Source of the DNA: Tolypothrix carrinoi HA7290-LM1
GTDB lineage: Bacteria; Cyanobacteriota; Cyanobacteriia; Cyanobacteriales; Nostocaceae
DNA length: 38,433 nucleotides
NCBI GenBank assembly: GCA_019358935.1
Contig: JAHHIK010000083.1
Coordinates: 1 to 38,433, forward strand
Reading direction: 5' to 3'
This document shows positions 8,387 to 33,201 of this stretch, piece by piece. The notes below the pieces were generated by a model. It was not told the origin of the DNA. It saw only the letters and a program-made list of their open reading frames with translations, and made no database searches. A program made the translations under genes and the position numbers. Position 1 is the stretch's first letter, and the number at the start of each line of letters is the position of its first letter.

Positions 8387-9586
8387 CTAATTTTTATCTA
8401 GTGGCAGGGTAATGATAAACTCTGTTCCTTCTTTTAACTTAGAGTGGCAAGTTAAAGATCCGCCGTGTTTTTCGACTACAATAGAATAGGCGATCGCTAA
8501 ACCTAAGCCTGTACCATTTCCTACGGGTTTAGTGGTAAAAAATTGGTCAAAAATTTTTTGTTTTACATCCTCACATATTCCTACTCCATTATCCGCAATC
8601 CGAATTAAGACACTCTTTTCGTCTGCTGTAAGTTCTGTAGTAATTCTAATTTGTCCTTTTTCTTTAACAAATGATTGTATTGCATCGATGGCATTTGTTA
8701 AGATATTCATAAAAGCTTGGTTAATTAGCCCTGCATAACATTCGACTGAAGGCAAATTAGCGTATTTTTTAACTACTTCGATTTCTGGATGCTTTTGAGT
8801 TTGTTTGAGACGACTGCTGAGAATCATCAGAGTGCTATCAATGCCATCATGCAAGTTTACTGATTTGCGTTCAGCTTCATCTAAGCGAGAAAATATTCGT
8901 AGCGCTCGCACAATTTATTGAATTCGTTCAGTCCCCACTGTCATTGATGATAACAGCTTGCAAAGGTCTTGTTTGATAAAGTCTAGTTCAATTTGTTGAG
9001 AATAATCTTGAATTTATGGAATAGGATTATAGGTATAAACTTCATATAAATGCAGTAATTTCAACAATTGTTCAATATATTGTGCAGCATAATGTAAATT
9101 ACCTTCAAGAAAATTGACGGGGTTGTTAATTTCGTGAGCAACTCCCGCTACTAATTGCCCTAAAGAAGACATTTTTTCTTGCTGTACTAACTTAAGTTGA
9201 GTTTTACGCAATTCTAAATGGACATTAATTCGGGCTAATACTTCTTCATGCTGAAAAGGTTTAGTAATATAATCCACAGCTCCTACTTGCAACCCTTTTA
9301 CCTTATCCACCACATCAGAAAGAGCTGTCATAAAAATCACTGGAATATCCTTGGTTTTTGGATTAGCTTTTAGACGACGACAAGTTTCAAATCCATCAAT
9401 TCCCGGCATCATCACATCTAACAAAATTAATTGCGGTAATTCCTCTTGTGCTTTTTTAAACGCATTTTCACCGTTTTGAGCTACAGAAACACTAAAATTA
9501 GAATAATGTAAAAAATCAACTAATACTTTCAGATTGGTGGGAATATCATCAACAATTAAGATAGTATCTTGTTGAGTATTTAGCAT
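8387..9586 (-). pseudogene. Receiver-HisKA-HATPase hybrid kinase interrupted by two in-frame TAA codons (9014-9016 and 8915-8917)
   Basis: ORFs 9014-9586 (REC, AHEINNP H-box) and 8387-8911 (N, G1, F and G2 boxes) are in the same frame. The bridge reads NPIP*IQDYSQQIELDFIKQDLCKLLSSMTVGTERIQ*IVRALRIFSRLDE. Confidence 0.85.
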
Positions 9587-12691: not shown

Positions 12692-12794
12692 CAAAAGTGC
12701 ATAATTAACCTCAGGTGATTCCCATCAATAAAGTAGAACCACAGCAGACACTTCTTTTATGAACACTCGTTGACAACTAGCAAGAGGAAACTTC

Positions 12795-14366
12795 ATGAAA
12801 AAACGTGAAGACATCGTGGAAAAGTTCTCGACGTTTCTGAGCTTTGGAAACGCCAATATTGCTAGAAACTTGATTTGGCACACAGATCCAGAACTAGAAC
12901 GTTATATAAAACGTTTAGTCAAGTCTGAACCAGAAGCTAATAAGGAATTTTGGGCACGATATTTTTTGAAAATTTTAACAGAGGTATCACATTCGCAAAG
13001 TAGAGAAGTAGAGAATAAAAAAGATACACGAACACAAATTCAAGCCAACGCAGGCAAATCTTCTGTTCCATCTTCTTCAATAGCGGGAAGACACTTATCA
13101 GCTTACTTACAAGAAGCTTGTTTGTGGGCTTCTCAAAAAAGTTATCAAAGGTTTAAGTTTCTCCGGCACAAATACCCATTAGAAGAATATTTTCAGATAG
13201 CTAATTCAGCTGCAAATCCTCCAGCTAAACTTTTCAAAAATTTTAATTTAGAACATCCGCAAACCAATATAGAAGGTTATGCTAAAACTGCATTAGTACG
13301 TTTTGTCAGCAATACAATTTATCGACAAGATATAGAGGCAAAAAGAGATAAATTTTCTGATTATGGTTTGTTAAAACATTTAACTAATAAAGAATTGCGA
13401 GAAGCTTTAACTTCCCAAGGGATAAACAATAACCAAATTTTATCATACTGCTTAGTTTGGCAATGCTTAGATGAAATTTATCAACCGAACCAGAGCTTAG
13501 TCAATAGGAATTTTAAATATCCAAGTGAAACACAATTAACCCAAATTACTTTTCGCTACAATCAACGGCAAAATCAACTAAATTCTTCTACAGCAACTTC
13601 AGTAGATAAAATTCAAGATATGCTGTCAACTTGCATTAAAGCTGCTCGCGATTACCGCACCAAACGTTTTTTACCTCTAGAAGAATATGATACTATATCT
13701 GACTTGATGCCTACTCCTTGGGATACACTTTTGCAACAAGAAGCATCAGAACAAGTCCAATCTCTCATCTGGCAGTTATTTTCAAATATGCCAGAAGCCG
13801 GACAAATAATATTTCAACTTTTGCTAGGATTAAATTTAACTCAAATTGAAATAGTCGCAGTTTTAAAAAGTAAGTATCCGGAATTGCAAAAGCAATATCA
13901 AGTGGCTCGTCACTTAGCAAGATACAATAAAAATCTATTAAAAGACTTGGCTAATGAGTGGCAGAAAATTAACCCAGAAGTTTGCCTAAATGATGACAAA
14001 GATATTGAACGAATAAAAGACGCTATGGGTGAGTGCTTGCAGTCGCTCTGTCAAAACTTGTTATATTCGACTTTAGATAAAATTGAAGAACAATGCAATC
14101 ATTCAAAAAAGCTTTCAACTCTGACCAATGAAATAAATATGCTGAAACAGCCACGACTAGAACCGTTGATTGTTGACTTATCTGAGGCATCTAATATGCT
14201 TAGAGAAATAAAACAAAATTTAATAGATTGTTTCCAAGAAGAATTAGAAATTAATATGAATTTACCTAAAGCATCTCTAAAATTAGTTGAACCTAAAATA
14301 GAGATTTTGGTTGAGGAATGGATAAAAGGCAAACTTTATGTTGCTAATAAGGGTGAAGTAAGATGA
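12795..14366 (+). CDS. Cyanobacterial sigma-70-like (ECF-type) regulator
   Basis: N-terminal IVEKFSTFL and HLSAYLQEAC.W motifs, SDYGLL, and a region-4-like HTH (LGLNLTQIEIV...KQYQVARHLAR). The stop overlaps the next start (ATGA). Confidence 0.7.
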   Translation: MKKREDIVEKFSTFLSFGNANIARNLIWHTDPELERYIKRLVKSEPEANKEFWARYFLKILTEVSHSQSREVENKKDTRTQIQANAGKSSVPSSSIAGRHLSAYLQEACLWASQKSYQRFKFLRHKYPLEEYFQIANSAANPPAKLFKNFNLEHPQTNIEGYAKTALVRFVSNTIYRQDIEAKRDKFSDYGLLKHLTNKELREALTSQGINNNQILSYCLVWQCLDEIYQPNQSLVNRNFKYPSETQLTQITFRYNQRQNQLNSSTATSVDKIQDMLSTCIKAARDYRTKRFLPLEEYDTISDLMPTPWDTLLQQEASEQVQSLIWQLFSNMPEAGQIIFQLLLGLNLTQIEIVAVLKSKYPELQKQYQVARHLARYNKNLLKDLANEWQKINPEVCLNDDKDIERIKDAMGECLQSLCQNLLYSTLDKIEEQCNHSKKLSTLTNEINMLKQPRLEPLIVDLSEASNMLREIKQNLIDCFQEELEINMNLPKASLKLVEPKIEILVEEWIKGKLYVANKGEVR

Positions 14367-15586
14367 CATCTGATTTGAATGAATTAATGGTAATTTATCC
14401 AGAAAAATTATGGTTAGAAATATCAGACCAAGCACAAGAACACGCATGGCGATTATCTAAACTAAAGTCTTACTCTCATGCAACTGCTAGTTGGAATGCC
14501 TACCTTAATAATCTGTCTTTGCATATTTTTTTGGCTTGGTTGAAAGAAGACCCCGATTTGCGGGAAACTGTCAATGTTTGGCTGGATGACGAGCAATTAG
14601 CCAGCGTCTGGGAAGTTGTAAATGGCACGATGCTAACTATCGGTGATACTAAATTAGTACTAATTCCCAGTGATAAAAGTAATTTTCAAGAGTTGCGGAT
14701 TCCCCAAGAATGGGTTGATATTCCTAACTGGGCAGGTAACTATTATTTGGCTGTGCAGTTAAACTTGGAAGAACGTTGGTTTGGGGTATGGGGATACGCG
14801 ACTCATCAACAAATCAGGAAGGATGCTAAATATGATTCTTTGGATCAAACTTACTCTTTGGATGTAGAAGATTTAATTACAGATTTGAATGTGATGTGGG
14901 TAGCACGAGAAGTTTGCCCTGTTGAGAAACTAGAAGTAGAACCTTTATCGATATCAAGTACACAAGTAGAGAAATTATTAGAGCAATTAAGTAAATTCAC
15001 GTTTTATTCACCTCGCTTAGATGTACCTTTTGAAATGTGGGGAGCACTACTGGCAGTGGACGAATATCGGCAGCGTCTCTATCAACGACGGCTAGAAAAT
15101 CAAAAAAACAATCAAGTTGAATGCAGCCAATCTTTAGCAAATAATTTGAGCCAATGGTTTGAAAATATCTTTGAGGTGGGTTGGCAGTCTTTTGATGCGC
15201 TTATCAGCTCGCAACAGAAGACTTTAGCCGTTCAATTTAGAAGTGATGCGACGTTGAACGACCTGCGTGTCAAGAAAGCAAAGTTGATTGATTTGGGGAT
15301 GCAATTGGGTGGTACTGCTGTTGTGCTGCTACTGGGTTTAACATCTGAGTTGGATGAAAAAATCAGTATTCGCGTGCAACTGCATCCGGCAAATGAAGAA
15401 ATTTACTTGCCACCTTATCTCAGACTGGTTTTGCTCTCGGAATCAGGTAAAATTCTTCAGGAAGTACAATCAAGAAATCACGATCATTTGATTCAATTAA
15501 AAAAATTTAAATCTCATCCTGGAAAAAATTTTAGTATTAAGATAGCTTTTGGTGATATCAGTATTAAAGAAGACTTTGTGCTTTAA
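14363..15586 (+). CDS. DUF1822-family protein (candidate anti-sigma partner)
   Basis: WNAYLN, SVWEVVNG, ELRIPQEWVDIPNWAGNYYLAVQ, VWGYATH, NLSQWF...GWQ and AKLIDLG motifs. Confidence 0.85.
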   Translation: MTSDLNELMVIYPEKLWLEISDQAQEHAWRLSKLKSYSHATASWNAYLNNLSLHIFLAWLKEDPDLRETVNVWLDDEQLASVWEVVNGTMLTIGDTKLVLIPSDKSNFQELRIPQEWVDIPNWAGNYYLAVQLNLEERWFGVWGYATHQQIRKDAKYDSLDQTYSLDVEDLITDLNVMWVAREVCPVEKLEVEPLSISSTQVEKLLEQLSKFTFYSPRLDVPFEMWGALLAVDEYRQRLYQRRLENQKNNQVECSQSLANNLSQWFENIFEVGWQSFDALISSQQKTLAVQFRSDATLNDLRVKKAKLIDLGMQLGGTAVVLLLGLTSELDEKISIRVQLHPANEEIYLPPYLRLVLLSESGKILQEVQSRNHDHLIQLKKFKSHPGKNFSIKIAFGDISIKEDFVL

Positions 15587-15606
15587 CCGCTGGTTAACTT
15601 CCAAGC

Positions 15607-17946
15607 ATGAGTAAATTAGTTGTATTAAATTTGGGAAGAGGTGACTTAAAGCGGGGCTTTCCCTCGGTGACAGTTCAGCTATGGGAAGAAGGCAATCCCA
15701 TTGCCATGCAATTTACAGGCAGCTTACCACCGGCATCGTCGCTTTGGCAACTCTACAGGCGTTGGCAGTTACTTTATCAGTTGCTCTATGAAGCACTTTA
15801 TCCTAGTTTGGGTTGGCGGAGATACCTAGATAAAGAAGATGAAGAAATCGAAATAGACGAAGACGACGTAACCAATATTTCCTCGGTGGATTTTATTAAT
15901 TTATGTGATGATTTATCTCAGGGAATCAATACTTGGCTGAAGTCCGAGGCATTTCGCAATATTGACCAAAAATTACGCACAACATTAGCTCCTGATGAGG
16001 AAATTCGGGTAATTTTGGCAACAGAAGACGAAGAAGTAAAACGGCTTCCTTGGCATCTGTGGGATTTCTTTGAAGATTACCAATCAAGTATTGTCGGCAT
16101 CAGTGCTGCGGAGATTGAACGAGTTAAGCCATTACCTAAAAGTCCAAGGGATAAGTTAAGAATTTTAGCGATTATTGGCAATAGTGAAGGAATTGATGTC
16201 CAAAAAGATAGAGCAATTTTAGAACAATTACCAGGCGCGGAAACAGTTTTTCTGGTAGAGCCACAACGACAAGAGTTAGATAAATGGCTGTGGGATAAAC
16301 AGGGTTGGGATATTCTCTTTTTTGCCGGACATGGTTCAACTCAAACTGATGGAGAAACCGGGCGAATTCATATTAATAAAACTGATTGTCTGACGGTTCC
16401 TCAATTGAAAAATGCGCTGAAAGCAGCGATCGCTCGCGGGTTGCGTTTAGCTATTTTTAACTCCTGCGATGGGCTTTCCTTGGCGCGTCCGTTAGCTTCT
16501 TTGCAGATTCCGCAAATGATTGTCATGCGCGAACCTGTGCCGGATTTAGTCGCACAAGAATTTTTGAAGCATTTTCTCGCGGCATTTGCTGATGGTGAGT
16601 CTTTTTATTTGGCGGTGCGAGAAGCACAAGATAGGTTGCAAGGTTTAGAAAATGAGTTTCCCTGTGCTAGTTGGTTGCCTGTGATGTGTCAAAATCCATC
16701 TGAAGCACCGCTAGTTTGGCAAAAACCGATTGTTGCTCCTAAGCGCAAATCCTCACCAAATCGTCGTATTCTACGGATCGCTTTTCAAGTCAGCTTGCTC
16801 GTCACCGCTTTGATAATAGGAATGCGCGAGCTTGGGATTTTACAGTCGTCAGAACTGAAATCTTTCGATTATGTCATGCGATCGCGTCCTTATGAAGCAC
16901 AAGATCAACGCATTTTAGTGGTTGGCATCACCGAAGCTGATGTTCGCGATCAAAGCGCCAAAGAAAGAGGTGGAGCTTCATTATCAGACAAAACTTTGGC
17001 ACTCGTTGTGAGAAAATTAGAACAGTTTCAACCGCGAGCGATCGGCTTGGATATTTATCGCGAGAATCCAGTCAGCACAGATTATGCTTCTTTAGCCAAG
17101 ACAATGCAAAATAGCGATCGCTTTTTCGCAATCTGCAAAACCAGTGAAGATGACAAAAACCCTGGTATCCCCCCACCTCCAGAAGTGAGCGTGCAACGCC
17201 AAGGCTTTAGTGATGTTTTGACCGATCCCGACGGCGTTATCCGCCGACAATTATTGGCGATGGCACCGGCGCTTCCTTGTTTAACCGACAAATCCTTCAG
17301 CTTTCGTTTAGCTAGCCGTTACTTGGCTGATTTTGGCATTATACCACAACTTAATTCCGAAAAAAACTTTCAGTTTGGCAATGTCGTCTTCAAAAACTTA
17401 GAGTCAAACAGCGGGGGTTATCATGGAATCGATAATTTAGGTCATCAAGTACTGCTCAAGTGGCGTTCCTCACCTGCGATCGCTCCACAAGTTACACTTA
17501 AACAAGTTCTACTCAATCAACTTACGCCAGATTTAGTGCGCGATCGCATTGTCATCATTGGTACCACAGCTGAAAGTTATCATGACTATTGGTCTACTCC
17601 CTACAGTGCCCAAAAAATGCCCTACCAACCGATGTCAGGGATAGTCGTTCAAGCGCATATGATAAGTCAGATTCTCAGTGCTGTGTTGGATCGCAGACCA
17701 TTATTATCAGTCTTGCCAAAATGGTGTGAAGTTATGTGGATCTGGTGCTGGTCTATTGGCGGAGGTATGATTGCTTGGTACTTCCGCTCACCATTACACT
17801 TAGGAATAGCGAGCAACACCGGTCTGGCTATATTATATGGAGTTTGCCTTTATATATTAATACAAGGGGTATGGATACCGCTTGTTCCCTCAGCCTTGGT
17901 TTTCTTAGCTTGTGGTGTAATTGTCGCAGTATACACTAAGGACTAG
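15607..17946 (+). CDS. CHAT (caspase-like protease)-TM-CHASE2-3TM membrane protein
   Basis: RLPWHLW, FFAGH and IFNSCDG (His/Cys dyad); TM near aa 390-410; CHASE2 motifs (RILVVGITEAD, PRAIGLDIYR, DPDGVIRRQLL, IVIIGTTA, GIVVQAHMISQI); three C-terminal hydrophobic helices. Confidence 0.92.
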   Translation: MSKLVVLNLGRGDLKRGFPSVTVQLWEEGNPIAMQFTGSLPPASSLWQLYRRWQLLYQLLYEALYPSLGWRRYLDKEDEEIEIDEDDVTNISSVDFINLCDDLSQGINTWLKSEAFRNIDQKLRTTLAPDEEIRVILATEDEEVKRLPWHLWDFFEDYQSSIVGISAAEIERVKPLPKSPRDKLRILAIIGNSEGIDVQKDRAILEQLPGAETVFLVEPQRQELDKWLWDKQGWDILFFAGHGSTQTDGETGRIHINKTDCLTVPQLKNALKAAIARGLRLAIFNSCDGLSLARPLASLQIPQMIVMREPVPDLVAQEFLKHFLAAFADGESFYLAVREAQDRLQGLENEFPCASWLPVMCQNPSEAPLVWQKPIVAPKRKSSPNRRILRIAFQVSLLVTALIIGMRELGILQSSELKSFDYVMRSRPYEAQDQRILVVGITEADVRDQSAKERGGASLSDKTLALVVRKLEQFQPRAIGLDIYRENPVSTDYASLAKTMQNSDRFFAICKTSEDDKNPGIPPPPEVSVQRQGFSDVLTDPDGVIRRQLLAMAPALPCLTDKSFSFRLASRYLADFGIIPQLNSEKNFQFGNVVFKNLESNSGGYHGIDNLGHQVLLKWRSSPAIAPQVTLKQVLLNQLTPDLVRDRIVIIGTTAESYHDYWSTPYSAQKMPYQPMSGIVVQAHMISQILSAVLDRRPLLSVLPKWCEVMWIWCWSIGGGMIAWYFRSPLHLGIASNTGLAILYGVCLYILIQGVWIPLVPSALVFLACGVIVAVYTKD

Positions 17947-18000
17947 GGACGCTTGGACGCTTGGAAGAGAGATTTTCATACTTTAGGTGACTAATGACTA

Positions 18001-18744
18001 ATGAGAAAATCAATCATTGCATTTACCATTACTTTTACATCGCTGTGCATTAGCTACATGATGCCAGTCATGGCATATTTCGATTCATCTAATATACAAA
18101 TTCGTTTTAATCAAAAAGAAGCAGATGGATCGAGTCGAGGCAGACCTTCCAGAAGGGTAGGAACGGGAAGTCGGGGAGAATGTCCACCTGTGCAAGTGCC
18201 AGTTACTGCCTTAATACCCGCTAAAAATCCCGGTTTAACGGTTGAGGAACATCCTACGTTTTGGTTTTTTGTCCCTTATCAGTTTAATAATACATCCGGG
18301 GGAGAGTTTGCCTTGCAGGATGAAGCAAACAATGATGTTTACCGAACTTCTTTTAAGCTGCCGGAAACAGCAGGGATAGTTAGCCTCAGCGTACCATCCA
18401 CAGTAAGCTTAGAACTAAACAAAAGCTATCAATGGTACTTTAAAATTTACTGTAGTCGGCAAAATTTATCTAACCCAGTATTTGTGCGTGGATGGGTGGA
18501 AAGAGAAGCGCTCAAACCAGATTTAAAGAAACTTTTGCAAGCAGCTAACGATAAGCGATCGCGCATTGCTATTTATGCTGAAAATGGTATTTGGTATTCA
18601 GCTTTGACCGAGTTAGCTAAACTTCATTTTGCGGAACCTAAAAATACCGTCTTTATTAATGATTGGGCTAATTTGTTGCGAGATGTTGGCTTGGAGAATT
18701 TAGCCCAACAACCGATTGTCGGTGAAGTGAAAAGCTACCGTTAA
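18001..18744 (+). CDS. DUF928-family secreted protein
   Basis: Signal peptide, GRPSRRVGTGSRG.C, HPTFWFFVPY, YQWYF, V.GWVER, YAENGIWY and W.NLL.DVGL motifs. Confidence 0.9.
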   Translation: MRKSIIAFTITFTSLCISYMMPVMAYFDSSNIQIRFNQKEADGSSRGRPSRRVGTGSRGECPPVQVPVTALIPAKNPGLTVEEHPTFWFFVPYQFNNTSGGEFALQDEANNDVYRTSFKLPETAGIVSLSVPSTVSLELNKSYQWYFKIYCSRQNLSNPVFVRGWVEREALKPDLKKLLQAANDKRSRIAIYAENGIWYSALTELAKLHFAEPKNTVFINDWANLLRDVGLENLAQQPIVGEVKSYR

Positions 18745-18747
18745 GTT

Positions 18748-18901
18748 AGGTAATAGGTAATAGGTAATAGGTAATGGGTAATAGGTAATAGGTAATAGGT
18801 AATGGGTAATGGTGATAATTATTTTTCCAGTCCAAGCTCAACAGCCTCTGCCCGATGCCCGATTACCCATTACCAATTACCCATTACCAATTACCCATTA
18901 T
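18748..18901. repeat. Inverted STRR heptamer tracts between convergent operons
   Basis: About nine TAATAGG/TAATGGG units, then ATTACCC/ATTACCA units. Confidence 0.9.
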
Positions 18902-18905
18902 CCAT

Positions 18906-21791
18906 CTAAAGCCAATTTCCGACTAAAACATAAGGTGCCCAAAAATAAGGAGTTTGATATTTAACTAATAAAGCAAGTTGAGCGTGACGCAAAGCTTCGG
19001 CTTTAGTTTCGCGTTGTGCTAACTTTTGATAAAATTGATTCATTAATTCCGCAGTTGATTGGTCTTCTACTGACCATAAAGTTGCTAAAGTACTGCGGGT
19101 GCCTGCTCGCACGGCTATTCCCGCTAACCCTAAGGTAGCTCGCTTGTCACCACTAGCGGTTTGACAAGCACTGAGGACAAGTAATTCAATTGCGCGATCG
19201 CTTGTATTACGAAGTCGCAATAAGTTATCAAATTCTTTTACTTTCAACAGCTGTTCCCAAGTGAGAATAAAGGTTTTCTCGGCATTAGAACTAAACTCAC
19301 CGTGAGTTGCTATGTGAACTACACTAAATGGTGCTTCTTTAATCTGATTTTGGACATTTTTTTCAGTAAAAGTGCGATTGAGAAGTTCTTGACTTTTGGG
19401 AATCGTTGAGTGAATTTTCTGTGATTCCACTATCACGTTGTTGAGCGGAGGAAATGAGCGACCTTGGATTTCGCGTTGTTCGCTAACTCCAGCAATTAAA
19501 ACATTTAATTCTCTACGTTGCAAAGGTTTGGGGTCAATAAGTTGCAAACCAGGAGCTAAGGCGATCGCATACTTTTGAATTAAATATTGTTTCTGTTTTT
19601 CGTCATAAAGAACACCCATCGGAATATTTCGCAAAGAACCATCTAGTACAAACACTAAGGTTTTCATGTTTATCTTTGCTAAATCAGCTTCCAGTGGTTG
19701 AATCAACCATTCATACAGTTTTTGTGAGAGTTTTTGAACATCATTAATCCGGTCGGGTTCTCTAAGAAATTGCCCTAATTTCTCTAGGGTTATTTCAACT
19801 TCTTTTGCCTCTTTGTCAGTTGTGTAGTGCCTAAGTTGAGTTTGATTTGGTAACTTGAGAATAATTTCTATGCGGTCTTTTAAAATAATCGGATAAATAA
19901 CTGCGGCTGTCGAATCAATTTTGTCAACCACGTCATCAATTTGTTTTGGTTTCTCTTGTAAACAAGCTTCCCGAAAAAAGTTTTCTAGTTCACTTAATTG
20001 CAAAGCTTCAATCACATTCCGCGCTTGCTTTAAGTTATCTTGACTCACTGAGAATTGGGCAATGGGCATTGGGCATTGGGCATTGGGCAATGGGCAAAAT
20101 TCCTCTCCCCCTGCTCCCCCTGCTCCCCCTGCTCCCCCTGCTCCCCCACGCCCGTCGCCCTTGTCCCCTTGTCTCCCTTGTCCCCCTTGTCCCCCCCTCC
20201 CCCCCCCTCCCCCCCTCTCCCCTACGGGTTGCAAGAGTAAATCAACTAATTGCCGATATACAGGTTCTACATTATCTCGAAAGGTAAATTGCACATCTGG
20301 ATTTAGGGCAATCAAATCATTGCGTAAAAATTTCAGGGTATCTACTGCTTGAGTATAGAAGGCGATCGCCCCAGTAATATCGCCTTTAATTTTGAGTATC
20401 TGTCCTAATTGCCATTGCCAAAGATAAGCAATATCCTTGGCTTTAATTGCTTGAGCTTGTATCAAAGCTTGCTCTGTCAATTTCTGCGCGTTCGCTATAT
20501 CTTGGGTTTTCAGATACAATCCACCCAGCGCACCGATCGCATAAGCTTCGGAACGCTTATCCTCAATGCTTCTAGCTTGTTGAATCGCTGTTGCCAAACT
20601 TTCAGCAATTTCTTTCCAGGATGGGATGTCTGCATTGGTAGCTTGTTTTAAATATACCAAACTCTCAGCTAAGTGAATTTGGGCATAAATTGTCGTCTGG
20701 CTGGGTGGTATTTTCCTCAGCTTTAACTGTATCTCAGACGATAATTGTTGTGCTTGCGACCATTTTTGCAGTGACAACAACATACTCAGATGATTAAGTT
20801 GTGCTTGGATTTGTCCAAGCGGTGAAGTAGATATCGTAGCGGCTTGCGAGTAAAATTGCGCTGCTTGCTGGTAAAATTTGATAGCTTTTATATTTTGAGT
20901 GAAGATAGATTTGGTTAAATACTGCAAGGGCGTATACTCTTCAATACTTATTGTGTCCAGCCGCGATTCTCTATTACCATTAGCTGCATAAATGTTACCT
21001 AAACTAATCAAAGCAGCGCTTATTTCTGGAGGAGATTCTAATTTTTCGGCTATGTCCCGACTTTCAAGCAAAACTTCTAAAGATTCTTCTAAATTACCAA
21101 TTAATTGCACCACATCACCCAAGCTGCGTAAAGCGGTAGCTTTAACCAATGAGTCTGGTTGCTTTTCTAGACGGTGGTACATTTCCTTTAATGTCGTGCG
21201 AGATTGTAGGTATTGCCCTAAGGCTTGTTGGGCAATGCTTTGGTTAATCAAGCTGCGAGTTTTGCCAACTTCATCACCTGCTTTGGCATAGATATTTTCA
21301 GCTTGTTTCCATGTGTTTAAAGCAAGTTCTGCTTTACCTAGTTCTAATTGGAGATTTCCCTGAATTTCTAATGTTTGCGCCAAAACTGATGCCGAATTTG
21401 GGGTATTTTCTAAGGTTGTTAAGATTAAAAGACTTTGAGCGATCGCTCGATCTGCTTTTTCCCATTGTCCGAGTTGCTTAAAAGCTAACGAGAGATTACT
21501 TAAGGCGATCGCTTCTCCCAATTTATCTTTTTGAGTTCGCAAAGAAGAAGCTGCTTGTTGCAAAATCATCACCGCTGTCGATAACTCTCCAGCTTCATAG
21601 AGTTTTCGACCTTGTTCAATCAATACTTGACCATTTGGGGGTTCAACTTGAGAAAACACCGGCGATGAAATTGAACAAGTGATAAATAACACTGTTAAAA
21701 AGAGGGGAAAAGGTTTTTTCCTGATTGCAAGCAGTTTATTCTTTAAAAAACGTCGTACCGCTACAATAAATCGCCACCGTTTTCTTCTCAT
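18906..21791 (-). CDS. Secreted TPR-CHAT protease
   Basis: Basic N-region plus hydrophobic signal, multiple TPR-like repeats, FRDNVEPVYR, LENFFREAC, and a CHAT domain with VHIATHG and LVLSACQTA dyad and PYFWAPYVLVGNWL terminus. Confidence 0.93.
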   Translation of the reverse strand: MRRKRWRFIVAVRRFLKNKLLAIRKKPFPLFLTVLFITCSISSPVFSQVEPPNGQVLIEQGRKLYEAGELSTAVMILQQAASSLRTQKDKLGEAIALSNLSLAFKQLGQWEKADRAIAQSLLILTTLENTPNSASVLAQTLEIQGNLQLELGKAELALNTWKQAENIYAKAGDEVGKTRSLINQSIAQQALGQYLQSRTTLKEMYHRLEKQPDSLVKATALRSLGDVVQLIGNLEESLEVLLESRDIAEKLESPPEISAALISLGNIYAANGNRESRLDTISIEEYTPLQYLTKSIFTQNIKAIKFYQQAAQFYSQAATISTSPLGQIQAQLNHLSMLLSLQKWSQAQQLSSEIQLKLRKIPPSQTTIYAQIHLAESLVYLKQATNADIPSWKEIAESLATAIQQARSIEDKRSEAYAIGALGGLYLKTQDIANAQKLTEQALIQAQAIKAKDIAYLWQWQLGQILKIKGDITGAIAFYTQAVDTLKFLRNDLIALNPDVQFTFRDNVEPVYRQLVDLLLQPVGERGGGGGRGGQGGQGRQGDKGDGRGGAGGAGGAGGAGGEEFCPLPNAQCPMPIAQFSVSQDNLKQARNVIEALQLSELENFFREACLQEKPKQIDDVVDKIDSTAAVIYPIILKDRIEIILKLPNQTQLRHYTTDKEAKEVEITLEKLGQFLREPDRINDVQKLSQKLYEWLIQPLEADLAKINMKTLVFVLDGSLRNIPMGVLYDEKQKQYLIQKYAIALAPGLQLIDPKPLQRRELNVLIAGVSEQREIQGRSFPPLNNVIVESQKIHSTIPKSQELLNRTFTEKNVQNQIKEAPFSVVHIATHGEFSSNAEKTFILTWEQLLKVKEFDNLLRLRNTSDRAIELLVLSACQTASGDKRATLGLAGIAVRAGTRSTLATLWSVEDQSTAELMNQFYQKLAQRETKAEALRHAQLALLVKYQTPYFWAPYVLVGNWL
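20055..20223. repeat. Composite heptamer + nonamer repeat block inserted in frame in the TPR-CHAT gene
   Basis: TTGGGCA heptamers, then CCCCCTGCT and CCCCTTGT units; translated as GERGGGGGRGGQGG...GGAGGAGG...[14 protein letters not shown]. Confidence 0.9.
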
Positions 21792-21803
21792 CTCCTTTAT
21801 CCC

Positions 21804-24362
21804 TCAATCTTGACTAACGGGTGCTGCAACAGGGCAAGTTGGCGTTGACAAAAAGTTATTTATGTGCTTTGTTGGGGCAGAGGCGATTAACGTCACCTCA
21901 CCTTTATTGTTAATTACCCAACCAGTAGCTGCTACCATTTGATTTGGCAACTTAGAGCCACTTACTTTAGTAATTCCCCCCCTCTCCCTCTGTCCCCCTC
22001 TCCCCCTCTCCCCCTGCGTCACCCAATTGACGGTTGCAGTCTGATTACTACGCAGTGCTTCAGTTGGTAAAGGTGGTAAACCCCCGCGTCCGGTGATTGT
22101 AAATTTATTGCCTTGATTTGCTGGACAACCTTGAGCAATTAAATTAGAGCGATCGCTTACATCATCTGGTAATTCCACTAACCCAGAACTCAGGTCAATG
22201 TCAGGGGTAATAATATTTACTTGTCCGCTCAACGCCGCATTTTCCTGGGAAATTGCCGTAATGTCGTTTGACTGTAAATTTTGAGCATCTATTTCGCTGG
22301 GTTTTTTTGCTTCCAAGCGGCGTACTAAGTCTTCTCGGCTACGCTGTTCGATATTAAAAATACCAAAAGCTTGAATTTGCACTTTGCCACCAGAACCTTC
22401 AAAAGCATTTGCGCTGATATCGCTATTTTCATTTTTGACAGCAAGTAAAAACCCATTTGGGGCATTAATATTAATGTTACCGCCATTGCCGCCAGCTTCA
22501 GCGGTACCGGCACTAGTGGAGATTTGGCTTCCACGACGCAATAGCAAGAAGTCTTGAATTCCTAAAGTAATATTTCCACCGTTACCAGATGTAGTTGTGG
22601 CTAAGATACCTGCCTGATTATCAAGCCGGATGAAGTTAGAATCAACTTTGATATTTCCGGCAAATCCTTGTCCTTGGCTGCTAGCATTCACTTCAGCATT
22701 ATTTCTCAGAGTTAAGGCATTAGTAGTGATGTTGATGTCACCTCCATTGCCCACTGCTTTTGAGTCTACAGTACTGAATGCACCACTTGGTCTTGGAATT
22801 ATTTGTGTTGTATCCACCCCATCAAATAAGACAGAATTTCTAGCAGTAATATTGATATTGCCAGCATTTCCTATACCAAAAGTACTAGCAGATAATCTAG
22901 CCCCATTTTTAACTGTCAGGGAACCAGTAGTGATGCTGATGTCTCCTCCTTTGCCCACGGCTTCAGTTGCAATAAGATTGCTGAATAGACCACTACGCGA
23001 TGGCGTACCGTTTGCATTGAAGCCCAATCCATCAAAAGATACTGTATCTCGTGCATTCACAGTAATATTGCCACCATCGCCGCTTGCAGAAAAGGTCAAT
23101 ATAACACCGCCATTAGTCAGAGATAGTGACCCTGTGGTAATGCTGATGTTACCTGCTTTACCCACCCCTGTCCGCTCGACATCGCTAGATACTGCACTCG
23201 CAGTAGTAATGCCTACCCCATCAACAGAAACTGTATCCTTAGCATTAATGGTGATATTACCAGCATTGCCGATTCCTAAGGTGCTGGCATTCAACTTTCC
23301 ATCATTGCCCAGAAATAGTGAGCCGGTGTTAATGTTAATATCACCTGACTGTCCAATTGCCTTTTTTTGCACACTATTATCAATACGGCTACCATTTTGA
23401 ACATTTACTGCTGCTTGTGCATTAATGTCAATATTTCCGGCAATGCTTTTGACTGAACCCAGCCCATCTGCTATCCCAGCCAGTATCCGGCTTTGATTTG
23501 CCAGATTTAAATTTCCGGCATTAATGGCAATACTGCCATTATCTTGACCGCGCACATTCACATTAGCATTATTGATCAGTGATACGTCACTTCGCCCCAC
23601 CCCATCAGGAAAATTTAAACTCAGATTGCTGCCATTTCCATTTAAGTTAACTGTTCCCGCACTTCTAAATCCTCCTAACTCTACTCGACCACCAAAAGCA
23701 AATAATCCGCCACCATTTATATTGATATCACCGCCAACTAAAGATAAATTCTGACCATCTGGAACACGCAGACCATTTGCGGTGAATGTGCTTGATGGAT
23801 CTAATTCTGAAGGTGCAACTGAGTTAACCTCAATTGGTGCAGTTGCAGAGGAATTGAAAAACAACGCTGAAGGATTTATTGTCAGCAAGGGGAGGGGTGC
23901 TTCTGGGTTAGAAGCGCTGAAAAAGCCTTGATTGCCAAATTCAATGGCATTAGCAGTACTTGCCAAAAATGAGCCACCGATATCTAACTTGGCATTTTGA
24001 CTAAATACGATTCCATTGGGATTAATCAAAAATAAGTTTGCTGTACCCAAAGCGCGAATTGTACCATCAATGTTAGAAATAGATTTACCCGTTACCCGAC
24101 TGATAATATTTTGAATATTTAGAGCATTGTTAAAGAAAGCGACGCCACCATTAGGAATAGAAAATGTCTCAAAGCTGTGGAATAGATTTGTTTTTGCGGT
24201 TGTTCCTCCTTCGATCAGGTTTACATTGTTCTGTTGTGTGACTCTGGAGTTTATCGGTAGGGTTGCATCCGGGGTAATTTGTGCAACTGTTGGCTGAGAA
24301 GTAAATAAAAATAGTAGCGCACTGCCATGAATCAGCCAGAAGCGCATGAAAAGCAGTTTCAT
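21804..24362 (-). CDS. Filamentous haemagglutinin N-terminal domain exoprotein (TpsA-like), paralogue 1
   Basis: Signal peptide ending VAQ, NLFHSF, NIISRVTG, LFLINPNGI, repeated G.GG.I.I beta-helix units, NSDISANA and a C-terminal QGC...FTITGRGGLP motif. Confidence 0.93.
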   Translation of the reverse strand: MKLLFMRFWLIHGSALLFLFTSQPTVAQITPDATLPINSRVTQQNNVNLIEGGTTAKTNLFHSFETFSIPNGGVAFFNNALNIQNIISRVTGKSISNIDGTIRALGTANLFLINPNGIVFSQNAKLDIGGSFLASTANAIEFGNQGFFSASNPEAPLPLLTINPSALFFNSSATAPIEVNSVAPSELDPSSTFTANGLRVPDGQNLSLVGGDININGGGLFAFGGRVELGGFRSAGTVNLNGNGSNLSLNFPDGVGRSDVSLINNANVNVRGQDNGSIAINAGNLNLANQSRILAGIADGLGSVKSIAGNIDINAQAAVNVQNGSRIDNSVQKKAIGQSGDININTGSLFLGNDGKLNASTLGIGNAGNITINAKDTVSVDGVGITTASAVSSDVERTGVGKAGNISITTGSLSLTNGGVILTFSASGDGGNITVNARDTVSFDGLGFNANGTPSRSGLFSNLIATEAVGKGGDISITTGSLTVKNGARLSASTFGIGNAGNINITARNSVLFDGVDTTQIIPRPSGAFSTVDSKAVGNGGDINITTNALTLRNNAEVNASSQGQGFAGNIKVDSNFIRLDNQAGILATTTSGNGGNITLGIQDFLLLRRGSQISTSAGTAEAGGNGGNININAPNGFLLAVKNENSDISANAFEGSGGKVQIQAFGIFNIEQRSREDLVRRLEAKKPSEIDAQNLQSNDITAISQENAALSGQVNIITPDIDLSSGLVELPDDVSDRSNLIAQGCPANQGNKFTITGRGGLPPLPTEALRSNQTATVNWVTQGERGRGGQRERGGITKVSGSKLPNQMVAATGWVINNKGEVTLIASAPTKHINNFLSTPTCPVAAPVSQD

Positions 24363-24658: not shown

Positions 24659-24868
24659 ATGTTCTGAAGCTCAACATTCGTGTTCTGAACTCGAAACTTG
24701 ATGTTCTCAGGCTCAACATTCGTGTTCCAAACTCGAAACTTGATGTTCTCAGGCTCAACATTCGTCTTCCAAACTCGAAACTTGATGTTCTGAAGCTCAA
24801 CATTCGTGTTCCAAACTCGAAACTTGATGTTCTGAACTCGAAACTTGATGTTCTGAACTCGAAACTTA
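24659..24868. repeat. Tandem array of ten 21-bp units with A/B alternation (42-bp higher-order period)
   Basis: A = atgttctgaagctcaacattc or atgttctcaggctcaacattc; B = gtgttccaaactcgaaacttg and variants; order ABABABAB plus two B-like units. Confidence 0.95.
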
Positions 24869-24967: not shown

Positions 24968-25387
24968 CTACTTGTTGCTTTGTTGGTTGTGTTTTCCTTC
25001 CTGTTGGCGGAGTTCGTTTAAAATGGCGCTACCATTGTTGAAGGGACCTAAAGCGACGACAGCTGATGCGAGTTCGGTGACTTGATGCAGTTCTTGCCAA
25101 GTTGCTCCAGCGCGACGAGCGGCGATCGCATGGTGGTGTGCGGCTGGGACACCCATAACTAACAGCATCCCAAACAGCATTAATTGCGTTGTCTTGGTGT
25201 CGAAAGTTTTGTTGTAGAAAGCGTGAGCGCGAAATTTCTCGGCGAGTCGCAATCCCTCCGGGTCAATTTCACTACTAAACTCGAATTTTGCTTTCGGTAA
25301 TGGTGGCACTTCACCAAATAATTCGGCGTAGCTATCACCAAAGGCTGCAAGGTCAGGGGGTAAATTGGTCGATTGCGTGTCAGACAT
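24968..25387 (-). CDS. Carboxymuconolactone decarboxylase (CMD/AhpD-like) family protein without a CxxC motif
   Basis: FDTKTTQLMLFGML...HAIAARRAGATWQEL pattern; no cysteine in the protein. Confidence 0.8.
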   Translation of the reverse strand: MSDTQSTNLPPDLAAFGDSYAELFGEVPPLPKAKFEFSSEIDPEGLRLAEKFRAHAFYNKTFDTKTTQLMLFGMLLVMGVPAAHHHAIAARRAGATWQELHQVTELASAVVALGPFNNGSAILNELRQQEGKHNQQSNK

Positions 25388-27963: not shown

Positions 27964-28943
27964 GCCATTTCTCCTACAGTAGTAAGTGCGCGGACGATCG
28001 CCCGTTTTGCCATTTCCACTTTGAATTTGTTGTACTTTTGCGGCTTTGCTTGTTGCACAATTGCTGTTGCTGCGGCTGTAAATGTTTCCTCGTTCGGTTT
28101 CGCACCAACGAGAATTTTCTCAGCTTCGAGCGATCGCCAAGGTTTGTGTGCGACACCACCCATTGCGATTCGCGCCGCCTTGATGGTACCGTTGTCAATA
28201 TCCAAAGCTGCGGCAACCGAAACCAAGGCAAAAGCATAAGAAGCGCGATCGCGTACTTTGAGATAATGCGATCGTCTTGCGAACGGCGAATCTGGCAAAT
28301 CAACAGACACAATCAACTCACCTTGTTGCAACACCGTATCAATTTCTGGCGTGTCGCCCGGTAAACGATGAAACTCGGCGATGGGAATTGTACGTATCCC
28401 ATTTCCTCCCTGAACGCGGATGGTAGCATCAAGCGCGGCTAGTGCCACACACATATCAGAAGGATGGGTGGCAATGCATTTGTCACTTGCACCCAAGATA
28501 GCGTGAATTCTGTTATACCCTTCAATTGCCGCACAACCTGAACCGGGTTGGCGTTTATTGCAAGGCATCGACGTATCGTAGAAATAATAGCAGCGCGTTC
28601 TTTGCAGCAAATTTCCACCGACTGATGCCATGTTTCGCAGTTGTGGTGATGCACCTGCAAGAAAAGCTTCGGAAAGTAACGGATATCTCTCTTTAATCAG
28701 TTGATTATTTGCCACATCACTGTTTTTTGCCATAGCACCAATCCGCACCCCATCTGATATCACCTCAATTTTTGCCAATGGTAATCGGGTAATATCAACA
28801 AGCTGTGAGGGTTGCGTCACACCTTCTTTCATCAAATCAAGCAAGTTAGTTCCACCCGCGATAAACTTCGCTTCTGTGTTACTTGCAACCGTTTGAATGG
28901 CTGCACGTTCTTCTGTAACGCGGGTGTAAGCAAATGGTTTCAT
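27960..28943 (-). CDS. yagS: FAD-binding subunit (YagS/PaoB type); true start at MKPFAY
   Basis: [23 protein letters not shown], Cys cluster RCYYF...CNK...C...CIATHPSD and [13 protein letters not shown]-like AAAGGA upstream of ATG 28943; the longer ORF is repeat-derived. Confidence 0.92.
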
Positions 28944-28967
28944 ATTTAATTCCTTTGACAACAGCTC

Positions 28968-29427: not shown

Positions 29428-29438
29428 CTTCAAAAACC

Positions 29439-30316: not shown

Positions 30317-32782
30317 CTACAATGCAGGGCAAGTAGTTGGAATTAAGCTTTGAGGCGTAGTGTTAGCAGCAGCGATCAACGTCACTTCCCCTTTGTCGTT
30401 AATTACCCAACCAGTAGCAGGCACAATTTGATTTGGCAACTTCGAGCCACTTACTTTAGTTATTCTCCCCCACTCTCCCCCTCTCCACGCCAGACGCCTC
30501 AAGGTCGGACGCCTCCGCACAGCGCTGGCTCCTCTCCCCCTCCTCTCCCCCAGCGTCACCCAATTGACAGTTGCAGTCTGATTACTACGCAATGCCTCAC
30601 TTGGTAAAGGTGGTAAACCCCCACGTCCGGTGATTATAAATACATCGCCTCGACTTGCTGGGCAACCTTGGGCAATTAAACGACTTTGGTCAACAACATC
30701 GCTGGATAATTTTACTAATCCACGAGTGGGGTCTAGTAATGGTGTATTGATTTGCACATTCCCACTTAAGTCAGGATTTGCCCCAGTAGCCGTGATTTCA
30801 CTTTCTTGAGTGAGAGCATTCCGGAACTGAGTACCAAAAATCCCATAGGCATTGATAATTACATTTCCGCCCCGAAAATCAGTAGAATTCGCACTGATAT
30901 CGCTATTTTCCGCAGGGACGGCGACGATGAAACCATTTTTGGCATCGATGTTGATGTTGCCGCCTGTGATATTATTGCCTGTGGCGCTGGTGGTGATAGC
31001 ACTGCCTCGGCGCAATATTAATAAATTAAGAGAGCGGAGGTTGATATTTCCCTCTCCTGCTGTGGTATCAGCCCTGAGTTTTCCTTGATTGTCCAGCAAT
31101 AAGACACCAGAGGTAATCTCTAAGTTGCCTGCCCTCCCTGAGCCAGTACTAGCGACACTAACTGCTGCTCCATCCCGGACAGTCAATTTGTTAGTATTAA
31201 TTCTCAAGTCGCCTGCACTACCAGAACCCTCGCTTGTAGCTAGCAACGTACTAGGAACAATTTCACCATTACGACCAATGCCGGTGCCAGTGACTGTCAC
31301 AGAATTGGAGGCATTTATATCTAACCTCCCTGCTTTACCTGTACTAGCGTTAATCGCAGCAGTTGAGATACTTGCACCGTCTTGGACAAGCAAACGTTGT
31401 GTGTTGATTATTAAGTCCCCCCCATTGCCAGTGGCTGGTATGAATACCCTGCTAGTTCTGGTTCTAGTCTCAGCAACCAAACCACTAGGTAAATTAATAA
31501 TACTTAGTACCGCTCGACCGCTGGCTTCTACAGATTCAGAGGCATCTATTCTCAAAGTCCCTGCATTACCTGCACCAATGGTACTAGTTACTATTCGTCC
31601 TCCATCACGGAGAATCAATTTTCCGGTGGAAATGTTCACTGTTCCAGCATTCCCAGGATGATTGTTGTCACCGAGACTCTGCGTACCTAAGCTTGTATAA
31701 AATCCATTACCCAGTAATTGCACTGATTCAGAAGCATTTACTGTTATGTTCCCTCCCGATCCAGAACCAAAGGTAGACGCATCTATAGATGCAGCATCAC
31801 GGACAATCAACCGTTTCGTTTCAATTTTTATGTCACTCGCTGGTCCGTTTTCCTCAGTCCCAGTAAGTAACTGACTGGAGCCACTTACTTCTACAGATTC
31901 AGATGCTTTGATTGACAGAGGTTGACCTGGTTTGTTTCCCAGAGTAAACCCTCCTAGTTGTGAATTGTCAGCGATCGCAATTTTTCTGCCATGCAACTGG
32001 ATAGCCCCATTGCCTTCACCATCTGTACTAATGAAAGCTCCGTACATTTGAATATCTTGGAAGCTTCGCACGCCATTATATCCCAACATCCAGCCCTCGG
32101 CAGCTGGGATTAGGCTGACGAGACTGTTAGGGGCAACACTCCCTAAGTTAATTCGTCCTGCTCGTGCTGTCAGTCTGCCACCTTTGACTAATACATCACC
32201 ACCTAAGATAGCCAAGGTATTACCAGGCATAACTTCTAGGGTAGACCCCTCAATTTGAATCGGTTGAGCAATTTGCCCAAATTGCAAACCTATGGGAACA
32301 CTAACAGTTAGTAGTGGTGGTGTTTCAAGATTAGTAGCACTAAATTGTGTGCCATCAGCAAATATGAGATTACTGGCTGTACTCGTCACGAAAGAGCCAT
32401 TAACGTTTAATGAGGCATTCTGACCAAAGATAATCCCATTGGGATTAATCAGAAAAAGATTAGCAGAACCGTTGGTTTTGAGTAAGCCATCTATATTAGA
32501 GATTGAGCCACCTGTCACCCGGCTAATAATGTTTTGAACATTCAAGTCGTTGTTAAAAAAAGCCGATCCACCTGTGGGTACAGACAATTCTCTAAAACTA
32601 TGAAAAAGATTGTTTCCAACTCGATTTCCATTAGTAATATTGAAGTCCAGATTATTGGTGGTTAAAACCTTAGTAGATAAAGTTCCATCTGAGGTAATTT
32701 GTGCCTGAATCAAATCGGTTTTGGTTAGAAAGCATAAAAACCCTAAACCAGCAATCCACAAATAGTTAGTCCGCTTTCTCAT
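30317..32782 (-). CDS. Filamentous haemagglutinin N-terminal domain exoprotein (TpsA-like), paralogue 2
   Basis: Signal peptide ending AQ, NLFHSF, NIISRVTGG, LFLINPNGI, beta-helix repeats, NSDISANS and QGC...FIITGRGGLP. Confidence 0.93.
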   Translation of the reverse strand: MRKRTNYLWIAGLGFLCFLTKTDLIQAQITSDGTLSTKVLTTNNLDFNITNGNRVGNNLFHSFRELSVPTGGSAFFNNDLNVQNIISRVTGGSISNIDGLLKTNGSANLFLINPNGIIFGQNASLNVNGSFVTSTASNLIFADGTQFSATNLETPPLLTVSVPIGLQFGQIAQPIQIEGSTLEVMPGNTLAILGGDVLVKGGRLTARAGRINLGSVAPNSLVSLIPAAEGWMLGYNGVRSFQDIQMYGAFISTDGEGNGAIQLHGRKIAIADNSQLGGFTLGNKPGQPLSIKASESVEVSGSSQLLTGTEENGPASDIKIETKRLIVRDAASIDASTFGSGSGGNITVNASESVQLLGNGFYTSLGTQSLGDNNHPGNAGTVNISTGKLILRDGGRIVTSTIGAGNAGTLRIDASESVEASGRAVLSIINLPSGLVAETRTRTSRVFIPATGNGGDLIINTQRLLVQDGASISTAAINASTGKAGRLDINASNSVTVTGTGIGRNGEIVPSTLLATSEGSGSAGDLRINTNKLTVRDGAAVSVASTGSGRAGNLEITSGVLLLDNQGKLRADTTAGEGNINLRSLNLLILRRGSAITTSATGNNITGGNINIDAKNGFIVAVPAENSDISANSTDFRGGNVIINAYGIFGTQFRNALTQESEITATGANPDLSGNVQINTPLLDPTRGLVKLSSDVVDQSRLIAQGCPASRGDVFIITGRGGLPPLPSEALRSNQTATVNWVTLGERRGRGASAVRRRPTLRRLAWRGGEWGRITKVSGSKLPNQIVPATGWVINDKGEVTLIAAANTTPQSLIPTTCPAL
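30487..30531. repeat. Small structured dispersed repeat inserted in frame in the paralogue 2 tail
   Basis: acgccagacgcctcaaggtcggacgcctccgcacagcgctggctc, with an outer gccag/ctggc stem; absent from the aligned site in paralogue 1. Confidence 0.75.
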
Positions 32783-32895: not shown

Positions 32896-33201
32896 TTAGT
32901 TACAATTTGGTAGGCACTTTTGGACATTATTTACCCAAGCCCAACGTCCAAAGCTACCATCTGGACATATGACGCACTGCTTGATTGATATCATCGGTTT
33001 ATCAATAACCGGAACTTTAGTCATTACTTGTGGTGGTGAATCTCCTTTGTTTGTATCTTGCGGCATTTTAACGACTTCTAGCTCAATCGGTTCGGATGCG
33101 GTAACAGTATTAAATTTCGTTTCCTCAGCCTTAGCAATGGGGCTAAACATCAATAAAAATGATAAAGCGAAAGCAATGACAAGAGAAATTTTGCGTTTCA
33201 T
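32896..33201 (-). CDS. Small secreted protein with a four-cysteine C-terminal module
   Basis: Signal peptide MKRKISLVIAFALSFLLMFSPIAKA, SD AAGGAG upstream, and C-terminus CVICPDGSFGRWAWVNNVQKCLPNCN. Confidence 0.8.
   Translation of the reverse strand: MKRKISLVIAFALSFLLMFSPIAKAEETKFNTVTASEPIELEVVKMPQDTNKGDSPPQVMTKVPVIDKPMISIKQCVICPDGSFGRWAWVNNVQKCLPNCN

Follow-up and report, generated by a model that had tools for sequence, protein, structure and literature searches.

A conserved cyanobacterial gene cluster that combines an EACC2-caspase core (sigma factor, DUF1822 protein and CHASE2 receptor) with a candidate DUF928 input module

Introduction

Can a signal received outside the cytoplasmic membrane be carried to a sigma factor by caspase-like proteases? 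This question is raised by a locus of the cyanobacterium Tolypothrix carrinoi HA7290-LM1, at positions 12795..24362 of contig JAHHIK010000083.1 (the whole stretch analyzed, 38,433 nucleotides, is referred to as the window). Among its close relatives with names are Tolypothrix and Hassallia, and the host accordingly forms heterocysts. Here, genes for a sigma factor, a DUF1822 protein, a CHASE2 receptor with a cytoplasmic CHAT protease and a DUF928 protein face genes for an exported protease with tetratricopeptide repeats (TPR-CHAT) and a TpsA-like surface protein of the two-partner secretion (TPS) type. A preliminary description had joined the six products into one relay, in which the exported protease processes the surface protein or DUF928, the product activates CHASE2, and the inner protease cleaves DUF1822 to free the sigma factor. 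Our analysis reveals a real, conserved signaling cluster whose core has already been catalogued and whose proposed mechanism follows known precedents. The part of the relay made of sigma factor, DUF1822 and inner protease stands as a module; the fixed relay with a dedicated outer protease does not, and the cluster behaves like two modules, one for output and one for input.

Results

Six open reading frames (ORFs) were confirmed, four on the forward strand followed by two on the reverse strand (Table 1). They encode proteins of 523 (sigma factor), 407 (DUF1822), 779 (receptor), 247 (DUF928), 961 (TPR-CHAT) and 852 (TpsA-like) amino acids. The sigma and DUF1822 genes overlap by ATGA, the intergenic gaps of 20, 54 and 12 nucleotides are exact, and the convergent operon ends (18744 and 18906) are separated by 161 nucleotides of short tandem repeats. 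Five of the proteins were recognized by Pfam and the sigma factor through TIGR02937 in its homologues. The His/Cys dyads of both proteases are intact, the inner one (H242/C287) in 17/17 aligned homologues and the outer one (H830/C876) in 31/31. Thus, the genes, spacings and dyads first reported agree with ORF coordinates, Pfam and homologue alignments. The tight packing into two operons is likewise present here; their convergence is not kept among orthologue loci, where co-location is conserved in part and gene order is unlike between Tolypothrix-like, Nostoc and G142 loci (G142 being a second genome with all six gene types). Signal peptides and membrane topology were assigned from hydropathy and inspection. 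Scans of the region for sigma-70 promoters and terminators gave signals at chance level, and no RNA holder was listed for it.

Is the first protein of the cluster a sigma factor? Compared alone with TIGR02937, it scored E 1e-4, under the model cut-off, and 80 of its 85 homologues match the model. In the AlphaFold2 model (mean pLDDT 81, pTM 0.45), residues 50 to 179 resemble domain 2 of SigA (Z 9.3, root mean square deviation [rmsd] 2.6, 115 amino acids) and residues 313 to 391 resemble region 4 of SigL (Z 8.0, rmsd 2.2, 73 amino acids), and sigma factors head the list of fold comparisons. Because Z values of 8 to 9 are middling for helical proteins, the assignment rests on the single-sequence, homologue and fold evidence combined. 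Foldseek also ranked sigma factors first, yet with no E value below 0.001, and sequence searches of the PDB with the protein and with its alignment gave no match. Taken together, the homologue profiles and the predicted fold support a sigma-70 factor resembling the extracytoplasmic function (ECF) type, with sigma-2 and sigma-4 folds; a sigma factor had been proposed at this place. We also considered whether it is HetZ. NCBIfam model NF037963 matches three other genes in the genome and none in the window, and hhalign found no homology to HetZ (P 0.35). Paralogous sigma/DUF1822 units lie on contigs C106, C129, C62, C73, C28, C86, C17, C131 and C161 of this genome; their sigma factors are of a short (∼220 amino acids) or a long (390 to 520 amino acids) type, and the units on C28 and C86 seem split into several ORFs.

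The coupling between sigma factor and DUF1822 proved to be very tight. Of 37 orthologue loci, 36 have DUF1822 after the sigma gene, and a sigma-type gene stands immediately 5′ of DUF1822 in all 30 loci sampled across the class with the Pfam model (best-scoring locus per genome). The inner protease comes next in 32 of the 37 orthologue loci (contig ends account for three of the five misses) and lies within 1.5 kb in 17 of the 30 class-wide loci. From the receptor side, DUF1822 is found beside 9/11 CHASE2 receptors that carry the protease versus 0/49 remaining DUF928 loci, in line with the proposed tie between the two. DUF1822 is a probable anti-sigma factor. It also offers a plausible cut site: Arg293, in a linker of variable length N-terminal to the C-terminal beta domain, is kept in 41/43, 16/16 and 33/36 rows of three overlapping alignments, and this candidate resembles the HetF site in PatU3.

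Are DUF1822 and PatU then homologous? An ESM Atlas search with DUF1822 returned PatU clusters as best matches at 0.78, which we treat as a lead only, and the Arg of PatU aligned to R293 is kept in 30/31 sequences. An hhalign comparison was suggestive at first (P 0.015); with a wider alignment it gave 0.1 while an unrelated control gave 0.007, no better than controls. Of 302 matches to the PatU region, the 120 listed were all PatU-like proteins. We read the sigma factor and DUF1822 as analogues of HetZ and PatU; homology of DUF1822 to PatU is at most suggestive.

The third protein of the operon is the receptor. Its hydropathy profile contains one hydrophobic helix before CHASE2 (residues 388 to 406), two scored helices after it (734 to 752 and 757 to 775) and a third near 712 to 730 by eye. 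A helix thus links CHAT to CHASE2 as first described; it is not the only one, with two or three more following the sensor. Receptor homologues share a conserved domain of 160 amino acids N-terminal to CHAT, for which the name EACC2 is given by position. A caspase followed by a CHASE2 sensor between transmembrane helices, an intact dyad and sigma and DUF1822 neighbors all fit the EACC2-caspase design, and by this composition the core of the cluster is an EACC2-caspase system. The genome encodes five intact receptors of this inner type. The receptor is not HetF: it carries CHASE2 in place of the arrangement of CHAT, transmembrane helix and periplasmic TPRs, and a separate gene on contig C171 is the one we take to be HetF-like. 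No CHASE2 structure was found by sequence search, and the ligand of CHASE2 has been described as unknown (PMC10581220).

What could engage the sensor? DUF928 is a candidate. The family comprises 7,345 clusters at 50% identity, the searches made returned no function for it, and this genome carries eight DUF928 genes. Likeness to MtxA first appeared as an Atlas lead; the DUF928 model aligns with MtxA (4z29) over both domains (Z 9.2, rmsd 4.1, 150 amino acids), the next match having Z 6.9. The N-terminal linker, of low model confidence, ends in GGxxR/G, and its Arg is present in 148/152 domains. Among 60 DUF928 loci, hand-picked from 150 listed of 218 matches, CHASE2 lies within 10 kb at 43, TPR-CHAT at 22 and TPS at 18. 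Only 11 of the 43 CHASE2-bearing loci have the inner protease; the other 32 receptors have nucleotide cyclase, histidine kinase, GGDEF, AAA or TIR outputs. TPR-CHAT stands beside 14/32 receptors without protease versus 5/11 with it. Hence, the outer genes belong to CHASE2 signaling in general, and an outer protease dedicated to the relay, as originally envisaged, finds no support in these counts.

A predicted complex of DUF928 and CHASE2 scored 0.52, compared with 0.00 for the best of three controls; at least 81% of contacts are shared between prediction runs, and pLDDT of the partner is at least 80. The mark for such scores was reached by 116/157 solved pairs and 2/215 mismatched pairs, and scores of 0.60 or less comprise 18 solved pairs plus both mismatches. 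Since 0.52 falls in this low range, we grade the support from the complex as weak. Together with the neighborhoods, it makes DUF928 a rather likely periplasmic protein partner of CHASE2. One such neighborhood has been noted before (PMC5587647, in the portion considered here). Several relatives of DUF928 vary the theme. The genes of L093, L094, L111 and L112 encode tandem copies of the Gly-rich Arg motif ahead of the domain, and the tandem-domain protein P0213 has it before each domain. At L124:6362-9511, a TIR-TIR-CHASE2 receptor lies by DUF928, TpsA and TpsB genes, so that the same input module is joined to a TIR output.

We then asked to what the exported TPR-CHAT is tied. Each of the six such genes in the genome has a TPS gene within 10 kb, 4/6 being near CHASE2 and 4/6 near DUF928, and in locus L095 a TPS-CHAT fusion adjoins a DUF928 gene. 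The C-terminal tail of the first TpsA protein has two cysteines (C746 and C843) and TGRGGLP with Arg759, and a two-Cys tail with a TGRGG-type motif recurs in 36/41 TPS proteins. These figures favor an alternative in which the modules are merely co-located: the sigma factor would be gated by CHASE2, with which DUF928 would constitutively act as co-receptor of a small or foreign ligand, and TPR-CHAT would only mature or release TpsA, much as accessory proteases mature or release FhaB of Bordetella. Close relatives in which no outer operon adjoins the receptor (L006) point the same way. Against it stand the near-invariant Arg in a Gly-rich, probably flexible part of DUF928, the presence of CHASE2 at 19/22 DUF928 loci that bear TPR-CHAT, and the rearranged loci of G142:C216 (L150-L152), which still hold all six gene types within 25 kb. 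We consider this alternative somewhat unlikely, and retain a two-module system in which the outer genes feed the receptor.

The window contains a second TpsA-like gene. The two TpsA proteins are 41% identical overall, and the tail of the second is 65% identical to that of the first, whereas the tails of 15 other TPS proteins reach no more than 48%; on this basis, it probably belongs to the same system. Locus-specific tails were not upheld as a general rule, the TPS domain being equally locus-specific in G142 (four same-locus pairs). An ORF upstream of the second gene encodes a small exported protein without a Pfam match, preceded near 33379 by a weak copy (12.5 bits) of the promoter motif described below. 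By Pfam, no TpsB transporter gene lies in the window; home-built profiles found 8 TpsB-like and 31 TPS-like genes in the genome. Within TPR-CHAT, a Gly-rich insertion is ∼50 amino acids longer than in Nostoc homologues.

Which promoters might the sigma factor read? Of 36 aligned regions upstream of the sigma gene, 28 contain TGCATAA-N16-CCCAT, 27 of them with the spacer of 16 nucleotides. This genome contains seven exact N16 copies, six of them intergenic, versus 0 to 3 for 30 shuffled motifs; a weight matrix (threshold, 18 bits) gave 23 matches at 22 sites versus 3 and 3 for controls. Across 91 genomes of the order, counts of 10 and 9 copies came from the pair that has a close orthologue (∼800 bits); the remaining 89 had 46 together, none with more than 3. 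Ten further orthologue genomes hold 2 to 10 copies, of which one each may be there by construction, versus 0 to 1 for the reversed pattern. The sigma factor probably reads this motif. Genes 3′ of it in this genome encode two other ECF sigma factors, two C39-peptidase ABC exporters, a di-haem peroxidase, a LuxR regulator, a caspase, STAND ATPases and LysM proteins. The G142 contig that carries the sigma gene has 8/9 copies of that genome, placed ahead of exporter genes, lanthipeptide genes and the operon of DUF1822 and receptor; elsewhere the motif precedes separately transcribed DUF928 genes (L014, L018, L019, L020 and L032). From these genes, a candidate regulon emerges in which exporters and lanthipeptide genes stand with other ECF sigma factors. 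The six-gene set of G142:C216 itself adjoins NHLP/LanM lanthipeptide and type I exporter genes. A weak copy at G000:C71:36460 (+) (19.3 bits, 15-nucleotide spacer) lies ∼300 nucleotides before hetR. If real, it would tie the sigma factor to heterocyst control; it could be chance, its score being near noise (three control matches), and we did not use it.

Other features of the window surround the cluster. Between the two TpsA genes are a PaoABC-like molybdopterin oxidoreductase operon (25747-30047, −), whose FAD subunit ORF begins inside a 7-nucleotide tandem repeat, and a carboxymuconolactone decarboxylase-family gene (24968-25387). A response-regulator/histidine-kinase gene (8387-9586, −) is apparently broken into a receiver and HisKA start (9014-9586) and a kinase ATPase ORF (8387-8911) with an in-frame stop upstream. 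A membrane protein with a GTPase domain and dynamin/IRG-like matches (33823-35709, −) has no relation to the cluster. Related 21/42-nucleotide tandem repeats occupy the intergenic stretches 24659-24867 and 35950-36082, and repeats of 7 to 9 nucleotides are numerous across the window, some within reading frames.

Table 1. Coordinates of the cluster genes and of candidate sites in the window
Feature	Position	Strand	Basis or remark
Candidate sigma-operon promoter, TGCATAA-N16-CCCAT (−35/−10-like)	12698..12725	+	70 nt before start codon
Large ECF-like sigma factor	12795..14366	+	sigma-2 ∼50-179, sigma-4 ∼313-391, insertion, helical C-terminal extension
DUF1822 protein, probable anti-sigma factor	14363..15586	+	Pfam E 3e-91; role inferred
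Candidate scissile Arg293 (QFR/S) of DUF1822	codon 15239-15241	+	linker before C-terminal beta domain
Membrane receptor: EACC2-type N-domain, cytoplasmic CHAT (H242, C287), transmembrane helix, periplasmic CHASE2, more transmembrane helices	15607..17946	+	Pfam CHAT E 1e-13, CHASE2 E 2e-64
Exported DUF928 protein, MtxA-like Ig plus helical fold, probable CHASE2 partner	18001..18744	+	Pfam E 2e-62
Near-invariant Arg58 of DUF928	codon 18172-18174	+	ends Gly-rich linker
Exported TPR-CHAT protease (H830, C876)	18906..21791	−	Pfam TPR + CHAT E 5e-62; dyad 31/31
In-frame Gly-rich insertion of TPR-CHAT, short tandem repeats	∼20054-20223	−	
TpsA-like beta-helix exoprotein	21804..24362	−	PF05860 TPS E 4e-57, TIGR01901; hydrophobic N-terminus
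Second TpsA-like paralogue	30317..32782	−	TPS E 8e-62; outside 12795..24362
Small exported Cys-containing protein, membership uncertain	32896..33201	−	ORF upstream of second TpsA gene

Discussion

How might the two modules work? Which proteins bind, what is cleaved, what is transcribed and which way control runs are all inferred from the observed genes, domains, dyads, co-occurrence, arginine sites and motif. In the output module, DUF1822 would bind the sigma factor and keep it inactive; once CHASE2 is engaged, the cytoplasmic CHAT would cleave DUF1822 after Arg293, and the sigma factor released would act at TGCATAA-N16-CCCAT promoters of its own operon, of peptide exporters, of lanthipeptide genes and of other ECF sigma factors. 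That the receptor protease frees the sigma factor by cutting DUF1822 is, in our judgment, fairly probable. The input module would be generic, also feeding CHASE2 cyclases and kinases: DUF928 would be the protein partner of CHASE2 in the periplasm, the exported TPR-CHAT would switch DUF928 by cleavage after Arg58, and TPR-CHAT would itself be governed by the conserved tail of the TpsA surface protein. The switch at Arg58 is a tentative step, and control by the TpsA tail a more doubtful one. Conserved arginines are plausible candidate cut sites in both DUF1822 and DUF928. As a whole, a modular trans-envelope signaling system is the best explanation of the cluster, at slightly less than an even chance. 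The complete two-protease relay is unlikely. We hold equally improbable a fuller cascade, in which polymorphic TpsA fibers with a constant periplasmic tail would act on TPR-CHAT, the pro-ligand DUF928 would be clipped after its Gly-rich Arg to become the CHASE2 ligand, and the second CHAT would destroy the anti-sigma factor to turn on exported-peptide and defense genes.

Might the inner caspase instead cut its own receptor? In the autoproteolysis proposed by Kaur et al. in 2021 (PMC8195603, section 9), the fragment would serve as adaptor or activator on DUF1822 or the sigma factor, without destruction of an inhibitor, and the output would counter invaders. A self-cleavage model has likewise been put forward for DdvA, as described in the part of PMC11506125 considered here, and a caspase, STAND ATPases and lanthipeptide genes are among those linked to the motif. 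Two points speak against it: DUF1822 has a dedicated linker Arg, and the pattern matches HetF-PatU3 and Csx29-Csx30 as those systems are described in the parts of the sources used here, the substrate there being a separate inhibitor. We regard autoproteolysis as quite improbable. Reversed polarity, with a resting protease or uncut DUF928 keeping the system on until a signal turns it off, or the cluster as sigma regulon with TPR-CHAT as an output, would agree with the way in which HetF constitutively holds PatU3 levels down (part of PMC9457339) and with the motif before separately transcribed DUF928 genes, but is very improbable given an outer operon that has no motif here and an input module found with receptors having no sigma (1/49 loci).

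Several observations weigh against the modular reading that we favor. On the output side, 13/30 sigma-DUF1822 pairs lack an inner protease within 1.5 kb, two protease-bearing receptors (L087 and L121) lack a DUF1822 gene nearby, and R371 of DUF1822 is as conserved as R293 (41/43). On the input side, 17/60 DUF928 loci are without CHASE2, the complex score lies in a range more often wrong than right absent a strong prior, and the conserved Arg of DUF928 could instead serve binding. TPR-CHAT is missing within the flank at 6/11 protease-bearing receptors and at 20/37 orthologue loci, some cut by contig ends, those of L006, L018, L020 and L028 not; paralogues in trans could fill such gaps. Of the neighborhood that had been expected to be conserved, the outer operon is near the receptor in only part of the loci. 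As for the promoter, the motif was derived from upstream regions of some genomes later counted, does not occur in two genomes whose orthologues are more distant, and was not found before the first TpsA gene here nor before the sigma gene in G142. Finally, the sampled loci are best-scoring rows, and related genomes among them are not independent.

What would the modules mean if correct? To the catalogued core, the analysis adds candidate cut sites, a candidate CHASE2 partner and a probable sigma promoter. If DUF928, cut or uncut, is the partner of CHASE2, this would account for what feeds into many cyclases, kinases and proteases of cyanobacteria. The output module, of which each genome carries several paralogues, would add to HetF and Craspase another natural switch made of CHAT protease, anti-sigma factor and sigma factor, and the candidate promoter is a ready reporter. 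Protease-activated pro-ligand signaling is the logic of Spaetzle and Toll; the cascade, if true, would be its counterpart in bacteria, where it would also serve cyclase, kinase and TIR outputs.

The cluster may finally be set against known systems. In open-licence PubMed Central and bioRxiv, we found no experimental study of the cluster, of DUF928 as CHASE2 partner or of the TPS/TPR-CHAT pairing. In Craspase (PMC10028731, in part), the CHAT protease Csx29 cuts Csx30, the inhibitor of CASP-sigma, the same logic as proposed here; Craspase is cytoplasmic and guided to RNA by Cas7-11, whereas the window has no Cas gene or CRISPR array. Membership in type III-E is rejected accordingly: none of the 22 window ORFs scanned with Pfam belongs to a Cas family. 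A single Rfam CRISPR-DR28 match at 3973-3996, barely above the gathering score, lies in a palindromic stretch 3′ of a gene end with no array around it.

In the parts of the sources considered here, three further systems share features with the outer genes. DdvA-DdvS of Myxococcus (PMC11506125) also links a periplasmic TPR-CHAT to an ECF sigma factor across the membrane. DdvA is a single transmembrane anti-sigma factor freed by RseP; here, TPR-CHAT is separate and exported, and the second CHAT is cytoplasmic. With its signal-like N-terminus and no cytoplasmic zinc anti-sigma domain, TPR-CHAT is not of the DdvA type. The Sinorhizobium CHASE2 cyclases CyaD1/D2/K respond via NsrA to a protein signal that reaches them from the outer membrane (PMC13001267), which is the point in common; they differ in the beta-barrel receptor and the cAMP output, and no protease or sigma factor is described for them in that portion. 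In magnetotactic bacteria, the MtxA gene precedes a CHASE2 adenylate cyclase (PMC4439547). MtxA (PDB 4Z29) and DUF928 are both exported Ig plus helical proteins whose genes lie next to a CHASE2 receptor gene. They are 11% identical, and MtxA has an extra N-terminal domain, a cyclase output and an unsolved function.

Closest in composition are the EACC2-caspase systems with CHASE2, ECF sigma factor and DUF1822 that Kaur, Iyer, Burroughs and Aravind defined computationally in 2021 (PMC8195603). They share the N-terminal module and caspase with CHASE2 and transmembrane helices and the ECF sigma and DUF1822 neighbors, and three Fischerella operon rows of the supplement list genes for 'TM+beta_rich+TPRs' and 'TPRs+CASPASE'. 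The neighborhood was thus not without an account, as the preliminary description had supposed: the core was described, and the operon table has DUF928-like and TPR-caspase genes. The parts of the paper considered here propose autoproteolysis and give no role for DUF928 or an outer protease, no cut sites and no promoter; the CHASE2 rows examined hold no TPS gene, which is present here.

Closest in logic is HetF-PatU3-sigma-HetZ of Anabaena. As reported in the parts of the sources used, HetF cuts PatU3 at TNYR/SPET (PMC9457339), and PatU3 inhibits sigma-HetZ (PMC13342950). Both systems have a membrane-anchored cytoplasmic CHAT protease, whose cleavage is known there and proposed here, and both place the gene of an anti-sigma factor, known there and probable here, right after a large ECF sigma gene with insertions, with an Arg-specific cut there and a candidate Arg here. 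HetF carries periplasmic TPRs and the present receptor CHASE2 instead, the promoter of the HetZ system, TCCGGA, is unlike TGCATAA-N16-CCCAT, and this genome has HetZ, PatU and HetF genes of its own at other places. The parallel appears to be one of logic, with the sigma factor and DUF1822 as analogues of HetZ and PatU.

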